Counted from the first letter of the stretch, positions 3,008 to 50,375 are shown. The stretch: 64,000 nt of DNA from Chloroflexota bacterium (GCA_963662335.2 CAXXVD010000003.1:576001-640000), one strand, 5' to 3'. Notes: generated by a model not told the origin, from the letters alone. Numbers and translations are program-made.

Positions 3008-3544
3008 ATGCGTGTACGGCGCGCGGAACGCAACGACATCGCCGCCTGCGTACGGCTGGACGCTTCCTATCAGACGCAGACCGTGTGGGCTATGGAAACC
3101 CGCTGGGAGGGCAACCGCAAGCTGGCCGGCTTCCAAGCCCGCCGCCTGCCGCGCGTCCTCACGCTGCGGCCGCCGCTCGACCCGGACGAACTGCATGAAG
3201 ACTGGCGCAACGGCGACTTCTTCTTGGTGGCGGAAGAAGACGGCGTGATCCTCGGCTATCTGGACATGGTTACGCCCCGGCGGCTGGGCAGCGGCCTCAT
3301 CCAGGGCGTCGTCGTCCGTCCCGATCTGCGGCGGCGCGGCGTCGGCTCCGCCCTGCTGCGCACCAGCGTGAATTGGGCACGGCACAACCGGCTGCAAGGG
3401 CTCTGCATGGACGTGCAGTCGCGCAACTTCCCGGCGATACAGTTCCTGCAAAAGAACGGCTTTGTTTACAGCGGGTACAATGACCGTTACTATCCAACCC
3501 AAGACGTGGCGCTCTTCTTCGTCCACCGCGTGGGCTCCACCTAG
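3008..3544 (+). CDS. GNAT family N-acetyltransferase
   Basis: V.PDLRRRGVG acetyl-CoA motif A and N.PAI.FL.KNGF motif B. Confidence 0.88.
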   Translation: MRVRRAERNDIAACVRLDASYQTQTVWAMETRWEGNRKLAGFQARRLPRVLTLRPPLDPDELHEDWRNGDFFLVAEEDGVILGYLDMVTPRRLGSGLIQGVVVRPDLRRRGVGSALLRTSVNWARHNRLQGLCMDVQSRNFPAIQFLQKNGFVYSGYNDRYYPTQDVALFFVHRVGST

Positions 3545-3653
3545 CGCCATGCCGGATGGATTCTCCAGATGTCTTGGCAAGAGTGGGCTCCGCTCGTATC
3601 CCCTCTTGCTCTGGGAGAGGGAGAGGATGGGTGATCAATACTGTCGCATTAAC

Positions 3654-3675
3654 GTAGCGCGGGGGCTTGTCCCCC
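3654..3675 (+). repeat. REP-like palindrome, GTAGCGCGGGGGCTTGTCCCCC family
   Basis: Same sequence recurs at 46985, 47022, 50754 (inverted) and 57693 onward. Confidence 0.8.
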
Positions 3676-3963
3676 ACCAGAGCTATTGAAACTGGCACGT
3701 CAAGGATTGACCTAACAGCTTCATAGGTTTCAACCTGCGCTACTGGAGATTTGAGACGCGGGTTTTGCTGCCGCTCTGTCTAATACGACAGCATTGGGAT
3801 GGACGATCGCCAACGCGCTGGCAAGGCATCACCCGCGAGGCTGGGGCGCGGCGCATATGCGCCACTAATTCCGGTGACAGGGGAATGCGAGGCCGCATCG
3901 CGCAAACCCGCGCAAGAAGACCGCGACGCCGCGCTGCAGAAACACGACCAAGGAGCAATACGC

Positions 3964-5286
3964 TTGGTGAATGACGAGAAGACGATCAACATCGGACTGA
4001 TGGGTCTCGGCGTCGTCGGGACCGGCGTCCTCCGCATCCTGCGCGCGAAGGCCCGCGTGCTCGCGCGGGAAACGGGCCGCAGCCTGCGCGTCAAGAAGAT
4101 TCTCGTGCGGGAGAAGGAGAAGGCGCGCGGCGTGGACGTGGAGTCCGCTCTGCTTACCACCAATCCCGACGACATTCTGGACGATCCGAGTATTCACATC
4201 GTGATCGAGTTGATCGGCGGCGTGGAACCGGCCTACACCTACGCCACGCGCGCGCTCCAGGCCGGCAAGCACCTGGTTACCGCCAACAAAGACGTCATGG
4301 CGGCGCACGGGCCGGAACTCCTGCGCCTGGCCAACCGGCAGGGCGTGGACGTCTACTTCGAGGCGAGCGTGGGCGGCGGCATCCCGTTGATTGGCTCGTT
4401 TCGCTCCGACCTGGTGGCCAATGAGATTCGCGAGATCTACGCCATCATCAACGGCACCACCAACTACATCCTCACCCGCATGTCGCGGGAAGGCGCGGCG
4501 CTGCCGGACGTGCTGGCCGAGGCCCAACGCCTGGGTTACGCTGAAGCCGACCCCACCAAAGACGTGGAAGGCATCGACGCCGCATTCAAGCTGGCAATCC
4601 TGGCCTCGCTGGCGTTTCGCGCGGAGGTCGATCCCGCGGCCATCTACCGCGAAGGCATCATGCAACTGGAGCCGGCCGACTTCCGCTACGCCCACGATCT
4701 GGGCTACGTCATCAAGCTGCTGGCGCTCGCCCGTCACGAAAACGGCTGCTACGAAGCGTCGGTGTACCCCGCGCTGGTGCCGCAGGCTGCGCCGCTGGCC
4801 AGCGTTGACGGCGTGTACAATGCGGTGTACGTTGTCGGCGACTTGGTGGGGAACGTGATGTTCTACGGCCGCGGCGCGGGTTCGGAGCCGACGGCCAGCG
4901 CGATCGTGGCCGACGTGATCGACGTGGCGCACAATATCATCAGCCACGTGACCAACCGCATTCCCTACACTATCGACTCCACCAAGGCCATGCGGCCCCT
5001 GGACGAGGTTGAGACCCGGTTCTACTTCCGTTTGTGGGTGAAAGACCGGCCGGGCGTGCTGGCCAAGATCGCGACGGTCTGCGGGGAGAACCACATCAGC
5101 ATCGCTTCGGTCATCCAAAAGGAGACGGACCCGGCCAACCAAACGGCGGAAATCGTAATCACGACCCACCACGCCCGCGAACGCCCGATGCAAGATGCGC
5201 TGCGCGACATCGCGGCCCTGGACGTGGTGGCCAAGGTGGCGGGATTTCTCCGCATTGTGGATCTGGGCGAGACGGCGCGGACGTGA
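3964..5286 (+). CDS. hom: Homoserine dehydrogenase with C-terminal ACT domain
   Basis: GLGVVG Rossmann motif, VTANK, EASVGGGIP, NGTTNYIL, GRGAG, ACT DRPGVL; start TTG 3964 or GTG 3967 after AGGAG. Confidence 0.96.
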   Translation: MVNDEKTINIGLMGLGVVGTGVLRILRAKARVLARETGRSLRVKKILVREKEKARGVDVESALLTTNPDDILDDPSIHIVIELIGGVEPAYTYATRALQAGKHLVTANKDVMAAHGPELLRLANRQGVDVYFEASVGGGIPLIGSFRSDLVANEIREIYAIINGTTNYILTRMSREGAALPDVLAEAQRLGYAEADPTKDVEGIDAAFKLAILASLAFRAEVDPAAIYREGIMQLEPADFRYAHDLGYVIKLLALARHENGCYEASVYPALVPQAAPLASVDGVYNAVYVVGDLVGNVMFYGRGAGSEPTASAIVADVIDVAHNIISHVTNRIPYTIDSTKAMRPLDEVETRFYFRLWVKDRPGVLAKIATVCGENHISIASVIQKETDPANQTAEIVITTHHARERPMQDALRDIAALDVVAKVAGFLRIVDLGETART

Positions 5287-5317
5287 ATGCCGCCGCCTGA
5301 GCGTGCGCAATTCCCCG

Positions 5318-5469
5318 GTAGCGCAGGTTTGTAACCTGCGCCCACCGCCTGCGAGCGGAGAAGATGGATTCCTACCCGTCATTCCGGCGCAAGCCGGAAT
5401 CCATCTTGGCCGCGGGTACCCTGGATTTCGGCTTGCACCGGAATGACGGACAGTTTCCGCAGGAATGAC
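5318..5469. repeat. Cluster of REP-like palindromes between hom and thrC
   Basis: GTAGCGCAGGTTTGTAACCTGCGC at 5318-5341; GTCATTCCGGCGCAAGCCGGAATCC at 5378 with inverted partner ending GGAATGAC. Confidence 0.8.
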
Positions 5470-5551
5470 GGGCGAACGGTGTGATAGCCTATGCTCATGG
5501 CACTGCCGCAATTGAGGCATCTGGGAATGCGGAGATGAAGGACTGTATATC

Positions 5552-6658
5552 GTGGCTTCAGACGCAGGCCCCCTGACGAAGATGGCAAGCAGCACGACTG
5601 ATGCCGCGGGCCGCAACCTGCTGGCGCACTACCGGACGTATCTACCAATTACGGAGCGCACGCCGCTCATTGGCCGGGGCGAGGGTTTCACGCCGCTGGT
5701 GCGCGCCCAGGCTCTGGAAGAGCGCGTGGGCTGCGCGGAGCTCTGGCTGAAGCTGGAAGGCTGCAATCCGACCGGCTCCTTCAAAGACCGGGGCATGGTG
5801 ATGGCGGTGGCCAAGGCGCTGGAGGAAGGCTCCCAGGCCATCATGTGCGCCTCCACCGGCAACACCAGCGCCGCCGCCGCCGCCTATGCCGCCGCCGCGC
5901 AGATAAAAGCGGTGGTGGTGGTGTCCGCCGGCAAGATTGCCCTGGGCAAACTTGCCCAGGCGCTGATCTACGGCGCGGTGGTCATCGGGCTTGACGGCAC
6001 CTTCGACGACGCCCTGCGCATTGTGCGCGAAATCACGGCCCGCAACCCGATTACGGTGGTAAACTCCATCAACCCCTACCGGCTGCAGGGACAGAAGACG
6101 GCCGCCTTCGAATGCAGTGACGCCTTGGGCGACGCGCCGGATATACTCGCCATCCCGGTCGGCAACGCCGGCAACATCACCAGCTATTGGCTGGGCTTCC
6201 GCGAGTACCACCGCGCGGGCAAGACCACCCGCCTGCCGCGCATGTGGGGCTTCGAGGCCGAAGGCGCGGCGGCGATCGTGGAAAACCGTCCCATAGACAA
6301 CCCCGACACCGTCGCCTCTGCCCTGCGCATCGGCAACCCGGCCAACTGGCAGCGCGCCGTGCGCGCCCGCGACGACTCCGGCGGCCTGATCGACACGGTG
6401 AGCGATCCCGAAATCCTGGAGGCCTACCAACTCCTGGCAGCCGGCGAGGGCATCTTTGCCGAACCGGCCTCCGCCGCCTCCATCGCCGGCGTCCTCAAGC
6501 TGGCCGCCGCCGGCGAGGTCACGCCCAGCGACCGCATCGTCTGCGTCCTCACCGGCCACGGCCTGAAAGACCCCCAAATCGCCCTGGACGTGGCAAGCGA
6601 CGTGGTGCCGGCCCCCAATGACGTGCGCGAGATCGAGAAGATACTCGACTTGCGCTAA
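5552..6658 (+). CDS. thrC: Threonine synthase
   Basis: [13 protein letters not shown]-lysine motif, [22 protein letters not shown]; follows hom. Start may be ATG 5582. Confidence 0.96.
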
Positions 6659-40153: not shown

Positions 40154-40540
40154 ATGGCCACAGATCTCAAGCAAGATGTCGAGCGCGTGCAGCGCTTGCA
40201 GGAAGCGCGCGAAGCGCTGGCGGCGCTCCTCGCGAACTCCCTGGAAACCGATACGCGGGAACGTGAGCGCGGCAGCGATGCGTCGGCAGACGATGACGAC
40301 TTCGTGGACCTGGCGCAAGACGTCGCCATCCAGGAAGACCGCGAAGCGGTGTTGGACGTGCTGCGGCGCGACCTGCGGGCGTTCGATCAGGCCTGGCAGA
40401 AGGCCGAGGCCGGTACCTACGGCGTCTGCGAAGACTGCGGAGAGGGCATCCCGGCGGAACGCCTGGAGTTCATGCCGGAAGCCACGCTCTGCGTGGCCTG
40501 CCAGACCCGGCGGGAGCGCGCCTGGTTCGGCGTGCGCTAA
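40154..40540 (+). CDS. TraR/DksA family C4 zinc-finger protein
   Basis: Coiled coil with DFVDLA tip; GTYGVCEDCG..I..ERL...P.A.LCV.C; AAGGAGGT RBS. Confidence 0.92.
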   Translation: MATDLKQDVERVQRLQEAREALAALLANSLETDTRERERGSDASADDDDFVDLAQDVAIQEDREAVLDVLRRDLRAFDQAWQKAEAGTYGVCEDCGEGIPAERLEFMPEATLCVACQTRRERAWFGVR

Positions 40541-40662: not shown

Positions 40663-41562
40663 TCACTCTTTGGTCCGATTCACCAGATAGATCCCGGCCG
40701 CCACCAGCACCGCGCCCGCAATCAACTCCGGTCCCAGCGGCTCGTCCAGCAGCAGGTTGCTCAGCACCACGCCAAAGAGCGGCGTGGCAAAGAAGAGCAC
40801 CACCAGCCGGCTGGCGCTGTAGTGCTGGAGAATGGACGTCCAGGCCACGAAGCAAAAGCCGGCCACCGCCAGACCCTGGTAGAGAATGGCGGTGAGGCTG
40901 GCGACCGATAGACCGTATTGCCAGCCCCGCTCGAATACCGCGCTGAGCAGAAAGAAGCACGGCAGACTGAAGAGCATGGTCCAGATCAGCAGGCGGTAGG
41001 GATGAATGCTCTGCACCAGCCGCTTGGTGGCGACGATGCGCAACGCCAAGAGTGCGCCGCTGGCCAACACGATCGCGTCGCCCAGCAGGTATGCCCCCGA
41101 GGACAAGCTCATGCTCTCCGCGAACGTAAAGGTGACGCCGACAAAGGCCAGCAGGACGCCGGCGGTCTTGGGCACGGTCAGCCGGTCGCCCTGCAGCATG
41201 AAGTGGGCGAAGAGCGTGGTGAAGAGGGGATAGGTGCTGTTGAGCACGATCGACCGGGACGAGGTGGTGAAGTGGGTGCCGACGTTGAGGGCGATGATCT
41301 GGACCAGGAAGATCAGCGACAGGTAGATGAGCGGCACGAGTTCGCCGGGTTCCAGCTTGATCCGCACCCGCTGCCACCAGGCCCAACCGGTGACCGCCGC
41401 CAACCCGACGATGAAGCGAAACCCGGCCAGGGCCAGGGGCGGAATGTCCTGCAAGCCGATCTTGATGGCAACGGAGTTGCCGCCCCAGAGCAACGCCAGG
41501 AACAACACCAGCGCGATGATGCGGACGTCCGGTTCCCGGTTCGCTCCTGTGGTAGACGCCAT
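40663..41562 (-). CDS. DMT/EamA family transporter
   Basis: LWG.N..AIK, P..LA..RF, two EamA halves with 10 TM helices. Confidence 0.93.
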   Translation of the reverse strand: MASTTGANREPDVRIIALVLFLALLWGGNSVAIKIGLQDIPPLALAGFRFIVGLAAVTGWAWWQRVRIKLEPGELVPLIYLSLIFLVQIIALNVGTHFTTSSRSIVLNSTYPLFTTLFAHFMLQGDRLTVPKTAGVLLAFVGVTFTFAESMSLSSGAYLLGDAIVLASGALLALRIVATKRLVQSIHPYRLLIWTMLFSLPCFFLLSAVFERGWQYGLSVASLTAILYQGLAVAGFCFVAWTSILQHYSASRLVVLFFATPLFGVVLSNLLLDEPLGPELIAGAVLVAAGIYLVNRTKE

Positions 41563-41776
41563 GGCTAGGGGCTAATGCGAGGCAACGAAGAAGGAGGCAC
41601 GAACACTACCCAGTCCCCGCATACCGTACGTGCTCATGCATGTGCGATTCGCTAGGCGCTTTCTACCGTCTCTCATCCCAGAGGAGGGCCCGGAGCGTAC
41701 GTGCAGTCGCTTGCGGCGGAGCCGCATCAGGCCAGTGCACGTGCCGACTCTCCGGTAGTAACCGGCATGCGCTCCG

Positions 41777-41844
41777 GTAGCGTAGGTTTGCAACCTGCGC
41801 CGCCACCGCCATGCGCTGCGGTAGCGTAAGTTGACAACCCGCGC
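41777..41844 (+). repeat. Two degenerate GTAGCG(C/T)AGGTT..CAACCTGCGC REP-like palindromes
   Basis: 41777-41800 and 41821-41844; related to 5318-5341. Confidence 0.65.
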
Positions 41845-41856
41845 CGGCCCGGCCGG

Positions 41857-41928
41857 AGCCGACGGCCGGATTTGAACCGGCGGCCTATGGTTTACGAAAC
41901 CATTGCTCTACCACTGAGCTACGTCGGC
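41857..41928 (-). tRNA. tRNA-Thr (anticodon CGT)
   Basis: GCCGACG acceptor stem, AGCTCAGTGGTAGAGC D-arm, ATGGT-TTCGTAA-ACCAT anticodon arm, GGTTCAAATCC T-arm; followed by CCG, so the full CCA is not encoded. Confidence 0.96.
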
Positions 41929-42174
41929 GTGGCAAATACGTTCCAATTGTACCATACCCGTGCCTCGCCAACTCCCTGCCCGTCCGCTGGCAGCCCTTGT
42001 GTCCCGGCGGCGACGGTCACGTGCGCAGAGACTCCCTACCGTTGCCATGCGCACATGAGACCGCGAGCGCAACGCGAGCGTAAGCCTCTGGCAAACTCGC
42101 CCTAATCTTGGTAGGTTAAAGTTGCTCGCGAGCCCAGTGCGCACGGACGAGCGGCTTAGCGGACACTATCGTAC

Positions 42175-43275
42175 GTGCCTACCACGATTGCAGAGAGAAC
42201 CATCGCCACGACACCGCAGCTTACGCACACGCCGACGTCGTCGAAACCGCCAACTCCGGCGGAAGCGCCAACTTCGTCGCAGACGCAGGTTTCGCCTAAG
42301 CCGCCGAAACGTCCCGGCATCGAGCGGGGTGACACCGCGCGGGAGGCCGCGCGCAAGACCCTGCGCTTCCATTTCAGCCGCATGTTGAAGCACGAAGCCG
42401 GCACGATCGTCGGCAGCGACATCGAGGAACTCCACGACATGCGCGTGGCCGTGCGCCGGATGCGCGCGGCGGTGCAGTTGTTACGCCCGTATCTTCCCAA
42501 GAAGCGCGCCGCTTCCCTGCGCAAGGACCTGCGGCGTCTGGGCCGCGCCCTGGGCCCCACGCGCGACTACGACGTGATGCTGGCCAACCTCGAGACCTAC
42601 CGCGCGGCAATGCCGGCGCACATCCAAGACGGGCTCACGCCGCTCGCGCGGCGTTGGCAGAAGCGGCGCGTGCGGGCGCGCCGGACGATGCTGCGGTACC
42701 TGACAAGCAAACGCTACCGCACGCTCAAGCGCGAGTTGGCCGCTTTCCTCGAACCCGCGGGCGCGTCCCCACAACCGGGCGCGCCTGAATATCCCCAGAA
42801 CGCCGCCGTCGGGCCGCAGCCGCTCGTGGCTGCCGCGGCTCCGGGCCTGGTTGGCGCCCGCTATGAGAAACTGCTGGCATACGGCCCGTCACTCCACGGC
42901 GCGTCCATAGAGACGCTGCACGACCTGCGCATCGACTGCAAGCGCCTGCGCTATGCCCTGGAGTTCCTGCGCGAAATCCTGATCCCGCCGGCCGCGGCGG
43001 CGATCGAGGACGTCAAGCGCGCCCAAGACCACCTGGGCGACCTGAACGACGCCTACGTGGCCGGAACCGTCCTGCGCACGTTCTTGGAGAAACGGCAGCG
43101 CGACCGCGACGACGGGCACTACCCGGCCGCCGCCAAGGAAGCGCTCTGCGGCTACCTGGCGTTTTGCGACGACCGGGCGCGGACGAACGCCCAGACGTTT
43201 CCGGCGCTTTGGCAGCATCTCACCGGAGACGAGTTCCGCCAGCGCCTGCACGAGATCATGAATACCGCGCCGTGA
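42175..43275 (+). CDS. CHAD domain (polyphosphate-binding) protein
   Basis: LHDMRVAVRRMR, LG..RDYDV, LHDLRI..KRLRY..E, QDHLGDLND; start uncertain. Confidence 0.93.
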   Translation: MPTTIAERTIATTPQLTHTPTSSKPPTPAEAPTSSQTQVSPKPPKRPGIERGDTAREAARKTLRFHFSRMLKHEAGTIVGSDIEELHDMRVAVRRMRAAVQLLRPYLPKKRAASLRKDLRRLGRALGPTRDYDVMLANLETYRAAMPAHIQDGLTPLARRWQKRRVRARRTMLRYLTSKRYRTLKRELAAFLEPAGASPQPGAPEYPQNAAVGPQPLVAAAAPGLVGARYEKLLAYGPSLHGASIETLHDLRIDCKRLRYALEFLREILIPPAAAAIEDVKRAQDHLGDLNDAYVAGTVLRTFLEKRQRDRDDGHYPAAAKEALCGYLAFCDDRARTNAQTFPALWQHLTGDEFRQRLHEIMNTAP

Positions 43276-43321
43276 GGCCGCGGCCGCGCTTGCGGGATAG
43301 GCAGCGCAACGAGGAGCGCAC

Positions 43322-44995
43322 ATGACCGGAGAACGGATTGCCGTCATCGACATTGGCTCCAATTCCGCGCGCCTGGCGCTCTTGGAGGTGTATGAAGACC
43401 GCGCGTTCAAGCTGGTAGATGAACTCCGCGAGACGCTGCGGCTGGGCGAACAGCTTGACGCGGACGGCAACCTCACGGCGGAAGCGATCCAGCGCACGTT
43501 GGAAATCTGCCGCGTGCTGGCGCGCTTCTGCACGGCGCACCGCGTGACGCACGTCATCGGCGTTGCCACCAGCGCCCTGCGCCGCGCCCGCAACGGGCCG
43601 GCGGTCGTCGACCGCATCGCGGCCGAAACCGGCCTGCCCATCCGCATCATTTCGGGCGAACAGGAAGCCTACTACGACTTCGTGGCGGCGGTGAATAGCT
43701 CCGCCGCGGCGGATAGCGTGGTGGTTGACATTGGCGGCGGCAGCGCGCAAATCGTCCGCGCCCACCAGCGCGCGGCCACCCACATGGCTAGCCTGCCGCT
43801 CGGCGCAATCACGCTCACCAGCGCGTTCCTGAACCGCGATCGACCGACGAACAAGCAGATACGCGCGCTCGAGAGACACATCCAGGCCAATTTGCGCACG
43901 CTCTCCTGGCTCCACGAAGACGGCGCCGCCGACGCAACCGCTGACGCACGCGCGGCAAATGGCGCGCCGGGCGCCGCGGCCGCTCTCGCATCCAACGGCG
44001 GGCCCGTCTTGATCGGCATCGGCGGCGCCGTGCGCAACCTGGCAAAGATCTACCGGCGGCAGTCCGGCTATCCCCTCCACTTGCTCCACGGCATGAGCGT
44101 CCCCATGGAAGCCGTAGAAGAGATATACGCAACGCTCAGAAAGCTCAACCTGGAGCAACGGCGCAAGGTGCCCGGTCTTTCCACCAAGCGGGCGGACATC
44201 ATCGTGGCGGGAGCGGCGGTGGTGTGTGCCCTGGCGCGGGAGATTGGCGCTTCCGCTTTGGCCATCAGCGGCCGGGGCCTGCGCGAGGGGCTATTCTTCA
44301 ATCATGTTCTGGGCGGAGAACTCGTGGAACCGCGCGTGCCCGACCCGGCGCTCTTCGGCGCGACCAACCTCATGCGCTACTACAACGTGGATGAAACCCA
44401 CGCCAACCACGTGGCCAACCTGGCGCTCTCGCTCTTCGCTCAACTCGCGCCGCTGCACGGGCTGGACGCCAACGCGCGCAAACTGCTCCACATTGCCGCG
44501 CTGCTCCACGACGTGGGCGTGGCCGTTAACTACTACAACCACGACGAGCACGGCTTCTACCTGCTCACGCGCACGGGCATCGACGGCCTGACCCACCGGG
44601 AGTTGCTGATCGTGGCCTGCCTTGTAGCCGCGCACAACGGCAACGTCGGCCCCCTGAAACGCTGGCCGGAATACCGCTCGCTCCTGCACAAGCGCGACGC
44701 TGACGCCGTAGCCAAACTCAGCGCGCTCCTGCAACTCAGCGAGGCGCTCGACCGCAGCGAGTCCGGGCTGGTGGAAGCCGTGCGGTGTGAGATTGTGGAC
44801 AGCCGCCAAGTAACGCTCCATCTCGCCGCAGACCCCGACGCCGTGTGCGAACGCCGCGAAACGCAGGCAATGCTTACTGACATTGCAGCAGCATTTGGTG
44901 TACACTTTACGTTGGACTACGCGCACGAACATTTGGGGGGCGCGCACGCTGAGAGCGCGCCCACGGCGGCGTCCGCGAAGAAGGCAACACACTAG
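43322..44995 (+). CDS. ppx: Ppx/GppA exopolyphosphatase with HD domain
   Basis: IDIGSNS, ATSALR, GEQEA, DIGGGS, RADII, GLREG, LLHDVG. Confidence 0.95.
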   Translation: MTGERIAVIDIGSNSARLALLEVYEDRAFKLVDELRETLRLGEQLDADGNLTAEAIQRTLEICRVLARFCTAHRVTHVIGVATSALRRARNGPAVVDRIAAETGLPIRIISGEQEAYYDFVAAVNSSAAADSVVVDIGGGSAQIVRAHQRAATHMASLPLGAITLTSAFLNRDRPTNKQIRALERHIQANLRTLSWLHEDGAADATADARAANGAPGAAAALASNGGPVLIGIGGAVRNLAKIYRRQSGYPLHLLHGMSVPMEAVEEIYATLRKLNLEQRRKVPGLSTKRADIIVAGAAVVCALAREIGASALAISGRGLREGLFFNHVLGGELVEPRVPDPALFGATNLMRYYNVDETHANHVANLALSLFAQLAPLHGLDANARKLLHIAALLHDVGVAVNYYNHDEHGFYLLTRTGIDGLTHRELLIVACLVAAHNGNVGPLKRWPEYRSLLHKRDADAVAKLSALLQLSEALDRSESGLVEAVRCEIVDSRQVTLHLAADPDAVCERRETQAMLTDIAAAFGVHFTLDYAHEHLGGAHAESAPTAASAKKATH

Positions 44996-45018
44996 TGTGA
45001 GACCAGGAGATACCGCCA

Positions 45019-45744
45019 GTGGCTTTGAAGAAGATCCGCGGGCTCGGCCTGAACAAGAAGTATCCCGGCCGCCTGATCGTGGTGGAGGGCTGCGACGGTT
45101 CCGGCAAGAGCACCCAACTCCACCTCCTGCGCGTCTGGTTGCAGTCGCAGGGGTATCCGGTGGTCTACACCGAGTGGAACTCGTCGGCCATCGTGAAGCA
45201 GGCGACGCGGCGGGCGAAGCGCAAAGAGTTGCTCACGCCCACCACGTTTAGCCTCATCCACGCCTGCGACTTTGCCGATCGCTACGAGAAGGTCATCCTG
45301 CCGCCGCTCCACGCCGGCTGCATCGTGCTGGCCGACCGCTACGTCTACACCGCCTACGCGCGGGACGTGGCGCGCGGCTGCGACCTGCCCTGGGTGCGCA
45401 ACACCTACCGCTTTGCCGTGAAGCCCACCATCGCCTTCTACTTCCATGCGCCGTTGGAGGTCTCGATCTCGCGCATCCTCTTTGGCCGCCCGTCGCTGAA
45501 ATACTACGAGGCCGGCATGGATACGGGCCTCTCGCTGGATCCGGTGGAGAGCTTCAAGCTGTTTCAAGGCAAGATCAAAGAGCAGTACGATAGTATGGCC
45601 CGCAACGAACAGTTCGTCGTGATAGACGCCACGCGCACGATTCACGAGACGTGGGAGGAAGTGCAAAAGGTCGTGCTGGAGAAGCTGGCGGACTACGAGC
45701 CGCCGTCCAAACAAAACCTCCTCTCTCAGGGCATCGTCGCATAG
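45019..45744 (+). CDS. Thymidylate-kinase-like P-loop kinase A (intact Walker A); candidate polyphosphate kinase subunit
   Basis: IVVEGCDGSGKST, LADRY, YYEAGMD; lacks the canonical Tmk TREPG motif. Confidence 0.85.
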   Translation: MALKKIRGLGLNKKYPGRLIVVEGCDGSGKSTQLHLLRVWLQSQGYPVVYTEWNSSAIVKQATRRAKRKELLTPTTFSLIHACDFADRYEKVILPPLHAGCIVLADRYVYTAYARDVARGCDLPWVRNTYRFAVKPTIAFYFHAPLEVSISRILFGRPSLKYYEAGMDTGLSLDPVESFKLFQGKIKEQYDSMARNEQFVVIDATRTIHETWEEVQKVVLEKLADYEPPSKQNLLSQGIVA

Positions 45745-45771
45745 CCCTCTCCGGCGGGAAAGAGGGAAGTC

Positions 45772-46527
45772 TTGGCAAGCGAAAAGGGAGATGAACGAGT
45801 GTCATCCGTGCTGCCGGTGCGTGCGCGCTTCTACGGCTGCGGGCTGCCATACCTGGACGACCTGGAGCCTACCGGGCCGTTGATCGTCATCGAAGGCTCG
45901 GATTGTTCCGGGCGTTCCACCCAGACGCAGATGCTCAAGGAGTCGTTGGAAGCGGCCGGGCACGCCGTGCTGGAGATGGGCATCCGCCGTTCGGACCTCA
46001 TGGCAAAGGCCATTTCCGCCGCCAAGCGGGGCAATCTGCTGGGCAAGACCACGCTCAGCCTGCTCTACGCCACGGACCTGGCCGACCAGTTGGAGAACCG
46101 CCTGGTGCCGGCGATGCAGGCCGGTTTCGTGGTGCTGGCCGACCGCTACATATACACGCTCATGGCGCGGGACCTGGCGCGGGGCGCGGACCTGAAGTGG
46201 CTGAAGCGCCTCTTCGGCATCGCGCTGGAGCCGGACTTGATCATCTTCCTGGACGCGGAGCCGGAGGTGCTCTTCCACCGCACGTTGGCGAAGTACGGCG
46301 AACTGAACTACTGGGAGTCCGGCATGGATCTGCCCATGGGCAGCAGCATGTTCGAGAGCTTTCTCAAGTACCAGGCGTCGCTGCGCAAGCACTTCCACCG
46401 GCTGGGCGACGAGTACGGCTTCCACATGATCGACGCCACGCCCAGCCCCAAGAAGATCCACAAGCAGATTAGCGCGGTGGTTTCCGGCTACCTGGCGGAA
46501 TTGACGCAGCAGTCAGCCGACCGCTAG
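45772..46527 (+). CDS. Thymidylate-kinase-like protein B (degenerate Walker A); candidate polyphosphate kinase subunit
   Basis: IVIEGSDCSGRST (K to R), LADRY, YWESGMD; paralog of the upstream gene. Confidence 0.85.
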   Translation: MASEKGDERVSSVLPVRARFYGCGLPYLDDLEPTGPLIVIEGSDCSGRSTQTQMLKESLEAAGHAVLEMGIRRSDLMAKAISAAKRGNLLGKTTLSLLYATDLADQLENRLVPAMQAGFVVLADRYIYTLMARDLARGADLKWLKRLFGIALEPDLIIFLDAEPEVLFHRTLAKYGELNYWESGMDLPMGSSMFESFLKYQASLRKHFHRLGDEYGFHMIDATPSPKKIHKQISAVVSGYLAELTQQSADR

Positions 46528-46541
46528 CGCCAAACGGGCCG

Positions 46542-46937
46542 CTAGTCGTCCAGCGCGTGGAGGAGCGTGCGCACCCGCGCTTCGATTTGATCCCGGATGC
46601 CGCGCACCACGGCCGCCGGCTGTCCGCTGGGATCCGGGAGCCCCCAGTCCTCCACCGGCCCAAGCGCCGCCGGGCACGATTCGTCGATGGCGCAGCCCAT
46701 GGTGATGATTCTATCCGCCCAGTCGGCCAACTCCTGGGTAAGCAGCGCCGGCCGGTGACCGGCCAAACTGACGCCCCGCTCGGCCATCACCTGCGCCGCG
46801 ATCGGATTCACCCGCGCGCCCGGCTCCGTTCCCGCCGAACGCGCCTCCGCCTTGCCGCCGGCCAGGTGGCGCAGGAACGCCTCCGCCATCTGGCTGCGGC
46901 CGGCATTGTGGACGCAGACGAAGAGCACGCGCATCAT
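46542..46937 (-). CDS. arsC: Arsenate reductase / low-molecular-weight phosphatase family
   Basis: CVHNAGRSQMAE (CX5R), ITMGC....CP, W.L.DP. Confidence 0.9.
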   Translation of the reverse strand: MMRVLFVCVHNAGRSQMAEAFLRHLAGGKAEARSAGTEPGARVNPIAAQVMAERGVSLAGHRPALLTQELADWADRIITMGCAIDESCPAALGPVEDWGLPDPSGQPAAVVRGIRDQIEARVRTLLHALDD

Positions 46938-46984
46938 CGCAGGTTCCTTCCCCATCTCACCCAACAGGTTTCCCCCTCTCCCCC

Positions 46985-47045
46985 GTAGCGCGGGGGCTTG
47001 TCCCCCGCTGGAAGCTGACACGTAGCGCGGGGGCTTGTCCCCCGC
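46985..47045 (+). repeat. Two direct copies of GTAGCGCGGGGGCTTGTCCCCCGC
   Basis: 46985-47008 and 47022-47045 between phoU and arsC. Confidence 0.85.
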
Positions 47046-47061
47046 CGCCCGTAGGCTTTGC

Positions 47062-47733
47062 TCAATCCACCTGCTTCGAGAGGTTGAGGTCCAGCATCTT
47101 GCCGGTCACCAGGTAGATCACGCGCTCGGCGATGTTGGTGGCGCGGTCCGCCGTGCGCTCCAGGTCGTGGGTCACCCAGAGCAAGTAGGTGGCCCGTTGG
47201 ATGCTGCGGGGGTCTCTGATCATGTAGAGCAGCAACTCGTGGTAGATTTGCTCGTGGAGCGCGTCCACGTCGTCGTCCGCGTCGCACACCTGCCGCGCCA
47301 GGTCTACGTCGCGGGAGACCAGCGCGTCGATGCTCTCGCGGAGCATTGTAATCGCCATGTCCGCCATGCGCGGGATGTCGATCAGGGGCTTCAGCGGCGG
47401 CTCGTCGCCCATCATGAGGCTGATCTTGCCGATGCCTTCCGCGTAGTCGCCCATGCGCTCCAACTCGACCGCAATGTGCAGCAGCGCAATGACCCACCGC
47501 AGGTCGCGGGCGGCGGGTTGTTGGGTAGCGAGCAGGTCGACGCAGCGCTCCTCGATGGCAAAGCGCTTCTCGTCGATAACGTCATCGAACGCTACCACGG
47601 CATGGGACGCCTCCAGGTCACGTTCCCGCAAGGCGTCGATGGCGTGCGTAATAGCCTTCTCCACCATGCTGGCCAGCGCGAGAATGCCGTCCTGGATCTC
47701 TTCTAGCTGGGTCTCGACGTTCGTGCGCGCCAT
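47062..47733 (-). CDS. phoU: Phosphate signalling protein PhoU
   Basis: D..ID, QQP.A.DLR, LERMGDYA..I, DDDVD, LER.AD.ATNIAE. Confidence 0.96.
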   Translation of the reverse strand: MARTNVETQLEEIQDGILALASMVEKAITHAIDALRERDLEASHAVVAFDDVIDEKRFAIEERCVDLLATQQPAARDLRWVIALLHIAVELERMGDYAEGIGKISLMMGDEPPLKPLIDIPRMADMAITMLRESIDALVSRDVDLARQVCDADDDVDALHEQIYHELLLYMIRDPRSIQRATYLLWVTHDLERTADRATNIAERVIYLVTGKMLDLNLSKQVD

Positions 47734-48023
47734 GGCGCTCTCCCCCTTTGCCGCGTCCGCGGCGCAGCCTGCCGCCGCCCGGCCACTCTGGCGAATGACG
47801 TTTCCGTTGCAAAGCGCCGGAAACGTCAGGGCGTACCCCTATGCAATATACCATCATGCACTTTTTTCGCCAAATCGCCTGCCGCGCGCCACCCGCGCGC
47901 TCCGATTTGCTCATTCGTTGTCGTCAAGTGTACGGGCACGGCACGTACGGAGGGTTTGTGTGGAGTGAACAACGTGTGAAATGACCCCGCGTTCTTGTGT
48001 CCGTGGGTAGTGGCCGCCTGTCC

Positions 48024-48141
48024 GTCATTCCCGCAAAAGCGGGAATCCATCTTCCCCTCGCACCCAGTGGATTCCCGCGTGCGCGGGAATCCATCTTGGT
48101 CGTGCACCGCGAAGATAGATTCCCGCGTGCGCGGGAATGAC
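48024..48141. repeat. Triple REP cluster (ATTCCCGC-N4-GCGGGAAT)
   Basis: Three palindromic cores between phoR and phoU. Confidence 0.85.
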
Positions 48142-48243
48142 GGAGGACCTCACGCAATCTTCATTGGCAGTGACGCGGTGAGGAAGGAAGCCGGCCTCGT
48201 CATCCATTGCGGGCGGCGCTGTTGAGGACTGCGCGCGGCCTCG

Positions 48244-49674
48244 TCACGATTCCCGCGCGTTGTCGGCCGCGGCCGGCAGGGTCACCGTAAACGTCGTGCC
48301 CTGGCCCTCCACGCTCTCGGCGTCGATCGCGCCGCCGTGCGCCTGCACCACGTGCTTCACGATGGCCAGTCCCAGGCCGAAGCCCTCGCTGTGGCGGGAG
48401 CGGTCCACCTTGTAGAAGCGCTCGAAGACGTGGGGCAGGTGCTTGCGGGGGATGCCCATGCCGGTGTCGCGCACGCGTAGGCGGACGCTGCCGTTCTCCG
48501 CGTGCGCCGAGAGCAGTATGTGCCCGCGCTTGGACGTGAACTTGAAGGCATTGTGCAGCAGGTTGCTCAAGACCTGGCGCAGCTTCTCCTCGTCGCCGCG
48601 GACCCGCGGCAGGCGCTCCGGCAGGGTCACGTCGAGCGCAATCTTCTTCTTCTCCGCCTGCTGGCGGTGCGCCTCCTGTAGTTCCGCCACGAGCGGGCGC
48701 AGATCCAACGGCGTGAGTTCCAGGCCGGCCTGCTCGCTCTCCAGCCGGGAAAGTTCCATCAACTCGTCCACCATCGCGGCCATGCGGTCCACGTCGCTGT
48801 TGATGCGGCGCAGGAAGTCCTTGGCGCGCTTCTTGTCTTTCAGCGCGCCGCTCTCCAGCGACTCGACCAGGCCCTTCACCGCGGCCAGCGGCCCGCGCAG
48901 TTCGTGGGAGACGTTGCTCACGAACTCCCGGCGGGTCGTCTCCACCTGGCGAATGCGCGTGAGGTCGTGCATCGTCAGCAGCACGCTGGAGTCGCCGTGT
49001 TCGGCCAGCGGCGTGGTGATCACGCTGAGATATTTCGCGCCCCACTGCGCCATTTCCACCTCGCCGTGCTGCACCGCGCCCTCCGATGCGCAGCGGGTGA
49101 CGAGGTGCTGCACGCTGTAGTCGCGGATGACCTCGCTGCAGCGCCGGCCGAGCGCCTCTCCGCCGGTGAGATTGAGTATCTGTTCGGCGGCGTGATTTAC
49201 CAGCACGATGCGGCCGGCGCCGTCGATGACGACCACGCCGTCAGCCATGGTGTTGAGCACGGCGGTCAACTTGCCGCGCTCCAGCGAGAGGTCGCGCACC
49301 ACGTCGCGCACGGAAGCGGCCATGCGGTTGAAGGCCTGGGCCAGTTCCTGGGTCTCGCGGCTGTCCTGGGCCTGGACGCGGTAATCGAGTTGGCCGGCGG
49401 CGAGTTGATGGGCGGCCTCGGTGAGCGCGCCAAGCGAGCGCGCCGCGCCGGCCGCGGCGGCGTAGCCCGCCAGCGCCGCCAACGCCACGCCGGCCGCGCC
49501 GATCACACCGAGCGCAACGAGGTCGCGCCCAACACCCGCCGCCGCGTCTCTGCCAACGCCCGCAACGAAATAGGCGCCGGCCGCGCCGAGCGTGAGCACA
49601 ACCAGCGCGGCGCCGGCCAACGTGACGCGCCATTGCAGCGAACGTCGACTTCGTCGCAGATGAGGAAATTTCAT
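48244..49674 (-). CDS. phoR: Sensor histidine kinase, PhoR-like (2 TM, HAMP, PAS, HisKA, HATPase)
   Basis: FVSNVSHELR.PL, NLL.NA.KF, DTG.GI, FERFYKVD.SR, GLGLAIVKH; adjacent to phoU. Confidence 0.85.
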   Translation of the reverse strand: MKFPHLRRSRRSLQWRVTLAGAALVVLTLGAAGAYFVAGVGRDAAAGVGRDLVALGVIGAAGVALAALAGYAAAAGAARSLGALTEAAHQLAAGQLDYRVQAQDSRETQELAQAFNRMAASVRDVVRDLSLERGKLTAVLNTMADGVVVIDGAGRIVLVNHAAEQILNLTGGEALGRRCSEVIRDYSVQHLVTRCASEGAVQHGEVEMAQWGAKYLSVITTPLAEHGDSSVLLTMHDLTRIRQVETTRREFVSNVSHELRGPLAAVKGLVESLESGALKDKKRAKDFLRRINSDVDRMAAMVDELMELSRLESEQAGLELTPLDLRPLVAELQEAHRQQAEKKKIALDVTLPERLPRVRGDEEKLRQVLSNLLHNAFKFTSKRGHILLSAHAENGSVRLRVRDTGMGIPRKHLPHVFERFYKVDRSRHSEGFGLGLAIVKHVVQAHGGAIDAESVEGQGTTFTVTLPAAADNARES

Positions 49675-50375
49675 GCTTCAAACCGGTAGCCCACGCCCCG
49701 CACGGTCACGATGCGGGTCGGTTCGCTGGGTTCCGCCTCGATCTTCTCCCGCAGCCGGCGCACGTGCACGTCCACCGTCCGGCTGTCGCCCACCCAATCG
49801 AAGCCCCAGATGCGCTCCAGGATCTGGTCGCGGCTGAAGACCCGGTTGCGGCCGGACATGAGCAGCGCCAGCAGGCTGAATTCCTTGGGCTTGAGGGCCA
49901 GCGCGCGGTCGCCCAGGGTTGCGGTGTGGCTGCCGAGGTTTAGCTCCAGGTCGGCCGCGCGGAGCACGGTGGCGGCGGCGTCCTCCTGGGGTCGATTCTT
50001 GCCGCCCGGCCCCGCCCGGCGGCGCACGGCGCGCATCCGCGCCAGCAACTCGCGCGTGCTGAAGGGCTTCACCACGTAGTCGTCCGCGCCCAGTTCCAGG
50101 CCGACCACCCGGTCAACCTCTTCACCCTTTGCCGTGAGCATGATGATCGGCGCGGCCGTCTCCTGGCGCAGGATGCGGCAGACTTCCAGGCCGTCGAGCA
50201 CCGGCAGCATGATGTCGAGGATGATGAGGTCGGGCCGCGCCTCTCGCGCCAGTTCCAGACCCTCTTCGCCGTCCCGGGCGCTGTGCACCGCGTAGCCGTC
50301 CTGCTCCAGGCGGTAGCGCAATGCCTCCTGCAGGTTGTCGTCATCTTCGATGATCAGCACGGTTTCGCGTGGCAA
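49671..50375 (-). CDS. phoB: OmpR/PhoB family response regulator
   Basis: IEDD, LDIMLP, GADDY..KPF, RTVDVH..RLR.K, TVRGVGY; overlaps the kinase start. Confidence 0.82.
   Translation of the reverse strand: MPRETVLIIEDDDNLQEALRYRLEQDGYAVHSARDGEEGLELAREARPDLIILDIMLPVLDGLEVCRILRQETAAPIIMLTAKGEEVDRVVGLELGADDYVVKPFSTRELLARMRAVRRRAGPGGKNRPQEDAAATVLRAADLELNLGSHTATLGDRALALKPKEFSLLALLMSGRNRVFSRDQILERIWGFDWVGDSRTVDVHVRRLREKIEAEPSEPTRIVTVRGVGYRFEA

Follow-up and report, generated by a model that had tools for sequence, protein, structure and literature searches.

A CHAD-ppx operon with two thymidylate-kinase-like genes in a Chloroflexota bacterium: a candidate bacterial locus for family-3 polyphosphate kinase

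A 64,000-nucleotide stretch of DNA from a Chloroflexota bacterium (GCA_963662335.2 CAXXVD010000003.1:576001-640000), referred to here as the window, carries between positions 42175 and 46527 four genes on the + strand, encoding a CHAD-domain protein, a Ppx-type exopolyphosphatase and two paralogous proteins of the thymidylate-kinase (Tmk) family, A (TmkA) and B (TmkB). Judged from their sequences and by analogy with an archaeal enzyme, the four genes very probably constitute a polyphosphate (polyP) module in which A and B would together form a heteromeric family-3 polyphosphate kinase (PPK3). The locus is a further bacterial member of a family that has already been published. An original prediction made from the window's sequence had pointed to a two-subunit polyphosphate kinase, built from Tmk-annotated genes beside ppx, in Sulfolobus, and this enzyme is real: it is SaPPK3 of Sulfolobus acidocaldarius, composed of Saci_2019 (cPPK3) and Saci_2020 (rPPK3) (Hofmann et al., J Biol Chem 2026, PMC12995831, cited throughout from the part of its text that was available). 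The idea of a PPK3 at such a locus is not new, since the same paper predicts bacterial PPK3 operons with PPX/CHAD neighbours, multiple thymidine monophosphate (dTMP) kinase paralogues and, mostly, no PPK1 or PPK2.

According to the available text of that paper, Saci_2019 and Saci_2020 were annotated as thymidylate kinases and adjoin ppx, sixA and a CHAD gene. Their products form an α2β2 complex which acts as a reversible polyphosphate kinase favouring the formation of ATP from polyP and ADP. The ATP-forming specific activity is about 50-fold higher, and polyP synthesis is obtained only with an ATP-recycling system. Neither protein has dTMP-kinase activity, and Saci_2020 alone has neither polyphosphate kinase nor dTMP-kinase activity; the residues which bind ATP and ADP are nonetheless conserved in r and c subunits alike (PMC12995831).

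Identity of the two kinase-like proteins

Calls of open reading frames (ORFs), together with Pfam, bear out the arrangement originally described, four co-oriented genes separated by gaps of 46, 23 and 27 bp:

42175-43275, + strand: CHAD-domain protein (polyphosphate-binding module), 366 residues; PF05235 204.5 bits, residues 63-301
43322-44995, + strand: Ppx/GppA-family exopolyphosphatase, 557 residues; PF02541 193.2 bits and domain III PF21447 88.4 bits
45019-45744, + strand: A (TmkA), putative cPPK3-type subunit, 241 residues; PF02223 Thymidylate_kin 76.4 bits
45772-46527, + strand: B (TmkB), putative rPPK3-type subunit, 251 residues; PF02223 Thymidylate_kin 74.4 bits

Over 209 residues, A and B share 37% identity. 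Their translations have the P-loops GCDGSGKST (A) and GSDCSGRST (B), so that, as had been claimed, the Walker A motif is intact in A and degenerate in B, and the lid motifs KYYEAGMD (A) and NYWESGMD (B) give the shared pattern Y(Y/W)E(A/S)GMD. At the position of the AREPGGT motif of canonical Tmk, A has YTEWNSS and B has EMGIRRS; the TREPG motif is accordingly missing from both. Neither protein reaches the cut-off of the NCBIfam dTMP-kinase equivalog TIGR00041 (81.8 bits for A and 82.2 for B; cut-off 83.25), and neither has a match to PPK2 (PF03976) at E <= 0.01.

The window's genome holds three Tmk-family genes, namely A, B and a canonical tmk at C1:608777-609361, which scores 154.5 bits against PF02223, compared with about 75 for A and B, and retains the AREPGGT motif. 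Among structures in the PDB, A scores 205.1 bits (E 1.3e-59) against chain 2plr/5h70 and 79.2 bits against the best canonical Tmk; for B the values are 138.2 bits for 2plr and 45.5 for canonical Tmk. This chain is STK_15430 of Sulfurisphaera tokodaii, entitled 'Probable thymidylate kinase' in the PDB and named as the S. tokodaii cPPK3 homologue in the available text of PMC12995831. The presence of a separate canonical tmk, together with the far higher scores to STK_15430 than to canonical Tmk, leads to the conclusion that A and B are not dTMP kinases, as originally proposed. Annotation pipelines would be expected to call both genes tmk, to judge by their Pfam and NCBIfam scores, the PDB title and the wording of PMC12995831.

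STK_15430 (2plr/4nzy/4rzx/5h70) is the closest solved structure to both A and B. It has EWNSS, DFxDRYE, DRYIYTAYARD and an EAG lid motif in common with A, and differs in having been solved alone, without an r subunit, and in its lid sequence, KPQEAGAD as against KYYEAGMD in A. With canonical Tmk (TIGR00041/PF02223) the two proteins share the fold, P-loop and DRX motif, as well as a homodimer-like interface in the A-B model described below; they differ in having TEWNSS (A) and MGIRRS (B) in place of the dTMP-binding TREPGGT region. PPK2 enzymes (PF03976) use polyP, as the pair would, and resemble it as P-loop kinases which combine an active with an inactive module, but A and B have no PF03976 match. 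The class II two-domain PPK2 enzymes, with their inactive N-terminal domain, have been offered as a functional analogy in the available text of PMC12995831.

In Pfam searches the window's genome (3.23 Mb in 5 contigs, 96.04% complete, 4.29% contamination) gave no match to PPK2 (PF03976) or to PPK1 (PF02503, PF13090). A separate canonical tmk and the absence of ppk1 and ppk2 had been put forward originally as points to check, and both checks favour the proposal: the tmk lies at the C1 position given above (154.5 bits), and none of the three polyphosphate-kinase models finds a match in this 96%-complete genome.

Distribution of the A-B pair

A scan with A of prokaryotic genomes, one per species, yielded at least 588 stretches, at least 579 of them confirmed; the counts of loci that follow refer to the best 80. 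The closest loci belong to Chloroflexota metagenome-assembled genomes (MAGs), at 93-95% identity, followed by Bacillota, Armatimonadota, Acidobacteriota (Pyrinomonadaceae, Bryobacteraceae), Ignavibacteriota, Planctomycetota and others, together with a Methanocella MAG and Nitrososphaerales MAGs. An A-type gene is followed directly by a B-type gene in 80/80 loci. Ppx lies within the flanks in 59/80 and is adjacent in 53, the former count being 42/54 among the loci with full 5-kb flanks. CHAD is found near the pair in at least 33/80, a lower bound because the query was a single sequence. The conserved linkage to ppx and CHAD envisaged in the original prediction is borne out by these counts. The order CHAD-ppx-A-B with convergent ArsC-like, PhoU and PhoR-like genes is confined, among the best 80, to the 7 congeneric loci. 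One B-type gene, in an Ignavibacteriota MAG (L016, 5658-6448), is split into two overlapping ORFs, through either a frameshift or an assembly error.

By such sequence counts the family is commoner in bacteria, with at least 579 species genomes, than the 'a few taxonomically scattered bacteria' of the main text of PMC12995831. Acidobacteriota are mentioned in the available text of the preprint (10.1101/2024.08.28.610084), and the string 'Chloroflex' has 0 occurrences in the main texts of the two documents.

In a sample of 401 Chloroflexota genomes, 12 of them, the window's own included, from the window's genus, an A-type match at E <= 1e-40 was found in 77; the figures are 62/323 for high-quality genomes and 32/217 for genera. 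Two Chloroflexota genomes (G646 and G661) carry a second A-type copy, with three matches at E <= 1e-40. A species that can be cultivated, Dictyobacter alpinus (L073), is among the carriers of the pair. At closer range, the pair is present in 21 of 31 genomes (the window's and 30 relatives), comprising 17/17 of the genus and 4/14 others of the same class. None of these 21 carriers has PPK1 and one has PPK2, and neither PPK1 nor PPK2 was found in any of the 17 genomes of the genus. PPK1 and/or PPK2 occur in 8 of the 10 relatives that lack the pair, and the other 2 have neither. The fixation of the pair in one Chloroflexota genus and its occurrence in 32/217 sampled genera argue for including PPK3 in phosphorus-cycling marker sets, and for biochemical attention to a bacterial member.

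The archaeal side was covered by a search of 401 genomes from the phylum of a Nitrososphaerales locus, in which A-type matches (E <= 1e-30) were found in 29, falling into two groups. Proteins of one group are 56-63% identical to A and are labelled Nitrososphaeria-type here by their likeness to two loci of the scan, L051 and L079. The other group (n=14) is 46-51% identical to A and has the order ppx-A-B; we infer it to be Sulfolobales-type because the protein of one member, L105, is 100% identical to PDB chain 2plr/5h70.

The likeness of the Chloroflexota locus to SaPPK3 extends over several levels. In both, two adjacent Tmk-fold paralogues stand beside ppx and CHAD, P-loop and DRX motif are intact in the c subunit whilst the r subunit is degenerate, and the genome has a separate canonical dTMP kinase but neither PPK1 nor PPK2. 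A shares 46-51% identity with the c subunits of the Sulfolobales-type group, whose r subunits belong to one clade with B. There are also clear differences. The host here is bacterial, a member of the Chloroflexota; the gene order is CHAD-ppx-c-r, as against sixA-ppx-c-r-CHAD in archaea (available text of 10.1101/2024.08.28.610084), with no SixA seen at the Chloroflexota locus; and the Chloroflexota operon converges on a PhoU/PhoR/PhoB-like cluster. Furthermore, B keeps the DRX arginine, R133 and a Y-W-E-S-G-M-D lid, whereas the 14 Sulfolobales-type r subunits have Gly at the DRX position and Trp or Tyr at that of R133.

Subunit types and the predicted complex

The assignment of A and B to subunit types draws on a quick IQ-TREE phylogeny (LG+C20+F+G4) with support from the SH-like approximate likelihood ratio test (SH-aLRT) only. 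Its 87 rows, comprising 39 A-type, 39 B-type and 9 canonical Tmk proteins, were picked for spread from 109 A-type, 107 B-type and 30 canonical Tmk, the last from the window's genome and its relatives. The 9 canonical Tmk rows are separated from the 78 A-type and B-type rows with SH-aLRT 100 and a long branch. The 39 B-type rows, among them the window's B and the Sulfolobales-type proteins, make up a single clade (SH-aLRT 100), to which the partner encoded beside the protein identical to chain 2plr/5h70 also belongs. The A-type rows, with the window's A and the L105 protein identical to the PDB chain among them, fall into two groups which form an unresolved fork with the B clade. For the window's A and B alike, the congeners are the first to join, followed by an Armatimonadota pair (support 91 and 98); grouping alike in this way, the two subunits have travelled together. 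This phylogeny, made with Tmk and the archaeal ppx-linked pairs as originally suggested, thus sets A and B apart from Tmk and places them with the archaeal c and r types, respectively. Subunit-specific residues agree with it, and the claim of a catalytic and regulatory pair finds support accordingly: A appears to be the catalytic-type subunit and B its degenerate, regulatory-type partner.

At a locus in a Methanocella sp. MAG (L011, about 3239-6498), with the order ppx-A-B, both subunits nest among those of Bacillota, Armatimonadota and Chloroflexota, a placement which suggests that the genes were transferred horizontally between bacteria and a euryarchaeon, or else that the MAG contains a binning error.

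The residue comparison covers 109 A-type and 107 B-type rows in A numbering, with the duplicates L084 and L113 dropped; two B-type rows, one from a split gene and the other truncated where its contig ends, were left out of the alignment for low score. Five positions read as follows:

P-loop K30: A-type, Lys in 108/109 (one gap); B-type, Arg in 103/107 and Lys in 4, all Sulfolobales-type
H81: A-type, invariant His; B-type, Tyr in 107/107
R88: A-type, invariant Arg; B-type, Gln in the window's B and all archaeal B, Arg in 50/76 bacterial B
DRX R107: A-type, Arg in all; B-type, Arg in 93/93 outside the Sulfolobales-type group, Gly in 14/14 within it
K161: A-type, invariant Lys; B-type, Asp, Asn, Ser or Glu in 107/107, Asn in the window's B

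The window's A carries K30, D106-R107, K67, R88, R115, R119, R152, R157 and K161, which are invariant or nearly so in the 109 A-type rows, and has an intact P-loop GSGKST, a DRY motif and the invariant EWNSS. In the window's B the P-loop Lys is replaced by Arg, the His by Tyr, R88 by Gln and K161 by Asn; DRY is kept, and D124-R125, R133, R137 and the lid residue R170 are retained (B numbering). The Asp-Arg of DRX, R133, R137 and lid R170 are all kept in 93/93 B-type rows outside the Sulfolobales-type group. B-type proteins have in addition a conserved N-terminal FYGxGxPxL extension, and their mean column identity over 35 rows is 42%, that of A-type proteins over as many rows being 51%.

In the available text of PMC12995831 the inactivity of rPPK3 is ascribed to replacement of the DRX arginine. 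Among the sequences compared here, loss of this arginine looks like a lineage feature of the Sulfolobales-type r subunits and not a feature of the family, and the near-universal r-subunit change is instead the P-loop Lys to Arg, which differs from the published signature. For the window's B this substitution is the only clear catalytic-site lesion, because R133, R137 and lid R170 are retained along with the DRX arginine. On this comparison the published account of r-subunit inactivity does not transfer to the bacterial and Nitrososphaeria-type proteins. Four of the 14 Sulfolobales-type r subunits (L100, L101, L103 and L109) keep the P-loop Lys (GSGKTT) even though their DRX Arg is gone, so that the two lesions need not go together.

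The complex was modelled as a 1:1 A-B pair, with a 35-row alignment for each chain and the interface score ipSAE compared with controls. The ipSAE is 0.61 for the A-B model against 0.32 for the best control, a value for this 1:1 pair only, at an interface which may mirror that of solved Tmk homodimers; the mark applied is reached by 58/80 solved complexes and 2/110 mismatched pairs. Between the three runs at least 90% of contacts coincide, and the pLDDT of the partner is 81 or more. Residues 23-27 in the N-terminal part of B join the modelled interface.

Proposed function, rival readings and genomic setting

Taken together, the four proteins suggest the following scheme. CHAD, for which a polyP-binding role has been described (available text of PMC6537752), would tether or mark polyP, and Ppx would hydrolyse it, releasing inorganic phosphate. 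A would be the catalytic cPPK3 and B a non-catalytic or weakly catalytic rPPK3 which would activate A through oligomerisation. If they behave as the S. acidocaldarius enzyme does, A and B together would transfer phosphate reversibly between polyP and ADP/ATP. When the ratio of ATP to ADP is low, they would make ATP from polyP, which would serve as an energy or phosphate reserve, and only when it is high would they extend polyP. Since no PPK1 or PPK2 was found, the pair would be the only polyP-forming enzyme of the cell. We infer co-transcription of the operon, as we do the direction of the reaction and the stoichiometry of the complex. The original prediction of a full bind/make/degrade module stands in that CHAD, Ppx and the PPK3 pair occur together; its 'make' component has to be restated as a conditional direction, given that the published enzyme strongly prefers to form ATP from polyP and ADP (available text of PMC12995831).

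Several observations weigh against this scheme. The scores of A and B lie no more than 1 bit or so under the cut-off of the dTMP-kinase equivalog. The absence of PPK1 and PPK2 derives from Pfam searches of a 5-contig, 96%-complete, 4.29%-contaminated assembly, and in one relative (G427) the PPK3 pair coexists with PPK2, so that the two are not strictly exclusive. B is without the published inactivity feature of rPPK3 and, with its DRX arginine R125 intact, might not be inactive. The modelled A-B interface is pseudo-symmetric, residues 71-91/119-132 of A meeting residues 90-108/137-150 of B through equivalent helices (18-residue offset). Canonical Tmk homodimers have been solved with a similar interface, and the favourable score may because of this pseudo-symmetry reflect likeness to solved Tmk dimers, not a specific heteromer. 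The modelled interface also differs from the r2-core tetramer modelled in PMC12995831 (available text). Finally, the literature searched yielded no activity, expression or polyP data for this organism or for any bacterial Tmk-type PPK3, and of 7 sequencing runs listed for the sequence none is of RNA.

Other readings of the locus have to be set beside that of a heteromeric polyphosphate kinase. A and/or B might be genuine (deoxy)nucleoside monophosphate kinases, extra thymidylate-kinase paralogues whose proximity to ppx is coincidental, and both indeed lie above the PF02223 gathering score as well as close to the TIGR00041 cut-off. This is extremely improbable, however, in view of the canonical tmk elsewhere in the genome, the replaced TREPGGT-type region in both proteins, their separation from Tmk in the tree by a long branch with support of 100, the recurrence of the pair in 80/80 loci with Ppx near in 59/80, and the lack of dTMP-kinase activity in the archaeal orthologues (available text of PMC12995831). 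It is unlikely, too, that A and B act in the cell as an essentially one-way polyP:ADP phosphotransferase which regenerates ATP, polyP being produced by some enzyme that has escaped recognition, or else not being stored at all. Such a role would suit the roughly 50-fold ATP-forming bias of the archaeal enzyme and its dependence on ATP recycling for polyP synthesis, but that reaction is reversible (available text of PMC12995831); the sole CHAD and sole Ppx genes, both of them in the operon, would make little sense without a source of polyP, and PPK1 and PPK2 are missing from the window's genome and from 17/17 genomes of the genus.

The part played by B is a separate question. It is possible, though doubtful, that B provides either a second kinase site, active or semi-active, or a site for sensing nucleotides, in which the Lys to Arg change would keep binding, slow transfer and so set the threshold of an ATP/ADP switch. 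In other P-loop proteins, exchange of the Walker-A Lys for Arg tends to leave nucleotide binding in place and to impair transfer. The retention of DRX Asp-Arg, R133, R137 and lid R170 in 93/93 rows outside the Sulfolobales-type group speaks for such a role of B, as do the P-loop residue of those 93 rows, always Arg and not a random substitution, the good overall conservation of B-type proteins (42% mean column identity over 35 rows) and the conservation of ATP/ADP-binding residues in r and c subunits (available text of PMC12995831). On the other hand, no B-type row keeps the residues equivalent to H81 and K161, R88 is Gln in the window's B, and Saci_2020 alone is without polyphosphate kinase or dTMP-kinase activity (same text).

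A broader proposal can be put forward tentatively, as one that may well not hold. Tmk-type PPK3 could be a substantial and overlooked bacterial family, and entire lineages of Chloroflexota, Acidobacteriota and other phyla would have it as their sole polyphosphate kinase. The ancestral r subunit of the family, with DRX Arg and lid kept and Lys to Arg fixed, would be a nucleotide sensor which sets the ATP/ADP switch between making and spending polyP, and loss of the DRX Arg in Sulfolobales would be a later, lineage-specific decay. Surveys which score polyP metabolism by ppk1 and ppk2 would rate lineages such as that of the window as unable to make polyP, their kinase genes being called thymidylate kinase. 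The name may itself be a source of confusion in annotation: the label PPK3/rPPK3 has reportedly been used in another paper for an enzyme of the PPK2 family in Ruegeria pomeroyi; that would amount to a name clash.

Further features of the operon proteins and their genes may be recorded here. Genome profile searches find a single CHAD match and a single Ppx-GppA gene in the window's genome, both in the operon. The N-terminal 60 residues of the CHAD protein are Pro/Thr-rich. Shine-Dalgarno-like purine runs lie 5' of the ppx, A and B starts; the GTG start of CHAD has no such run upstream, and its start codon is uncertain for this reason. Ppx scores 290.1 bits against the exopolyphosphatase model TIGR03706, under the cut-off of 307, and bears an Ala-rich insert past residue ~200.

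The operon has on either side of it the following features:

41855-41928, - strand: tRNA-Thr(CGT) (ARAGORN; Rfam RF00005 77.7 bits), bounding the upstream intergenic region of the operon
42088-42125, + strand: conserved upstream block of ~38 bp, a candidate promoter or activator site, about 50-90 bp 5' of the CHAD start
46542-47021, - strand: low-molecular-weight-phosphatase/ArsC-like protein; PF01451 83.6 bits, arsenate-reductase models 68-76 bits, all below cut-offs
47062-47733, - strand: PhoU; TIGR02135 199.9 bits (cut-off 130.25)
48244-49674, - strand: PhoR/PnpS-like sensor histidine kinase, HAMP-PAS-HisKA-HATPase; PnpS 372.8 bits (cut-off 400), PhoR 298.8 bits (cut-off 334.2)
49671-50375, - strand: OmpR/PhoB-family response regulator, Response_reg and Trans_reg_C; PhoB TIGR02154 241 bits (cut-off 296.2)

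B and the ArsC-like gene are convergent, with stop codons 14 bp apart. The original prediction had the operon converging on phoB-phoR-phoU-arsC; convergence and phoU hold good, the identity of phoU being solid, while phoB, phoR and arsC are family-level calls aided by context, and the YycF and MtrA models score the OmpR/PhoB-family regulator much as PhoB does.

Of the 246-bp CHAD leader, the upstream block is the sole part that can be aligned between the window and the loci of 7 congeners; in the congeners it reads TCTGGCAATCTCnCGCTAATCTTGGTAGGTTAAnGTTG. It has there two AATCT words spaced 11 bp; in the window the first is AAACT and the second AATCT. The words are followed by a TAAAGT/TAATGT hexamer resembling a -10 element, the -35 being weak with no good candidate, and from this sequence the block looks activator-dependent. 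The exact block has 1 occurrence in the genome, and the few loose matches to AA[ATC]CT-N6-AA[ATC]CT elsewhere are unconnected to phosphate genes. The neighbouring PhoU and PhoR/PhoB-like pair, together with the conserved block, suggest that the operon may be under Pho control. A shared operator was sought by comparing the block with the regions upstream of the single pstS (C1:596873) and of the phoB-like gene, and no convincing motif emerged; the case for Pho control is for that reason one drawn from gene neighbourhood. A promoter and terminator scan of 41500-47200 returned 1 promoter-like and 2 terminator-like sites, no excess over shuffled sequence, and an Rfam scan of this region matched the tRNA alone.

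PhoU and the PhoR-like kinase are split by 510 bp without an assigned gene (47734-48243), containing only short overlapping ORFs, and otherwise resemble one unit. Upstream of the operon, beyond the tRNA, lie a yteA-like gene for a DksA/TraR-family C4 zinc-finger protein, below cut-offs, at 40154-40540 (+ strand), and one for an EamA/DMT-type transporter at 40663-41562 (- strand).

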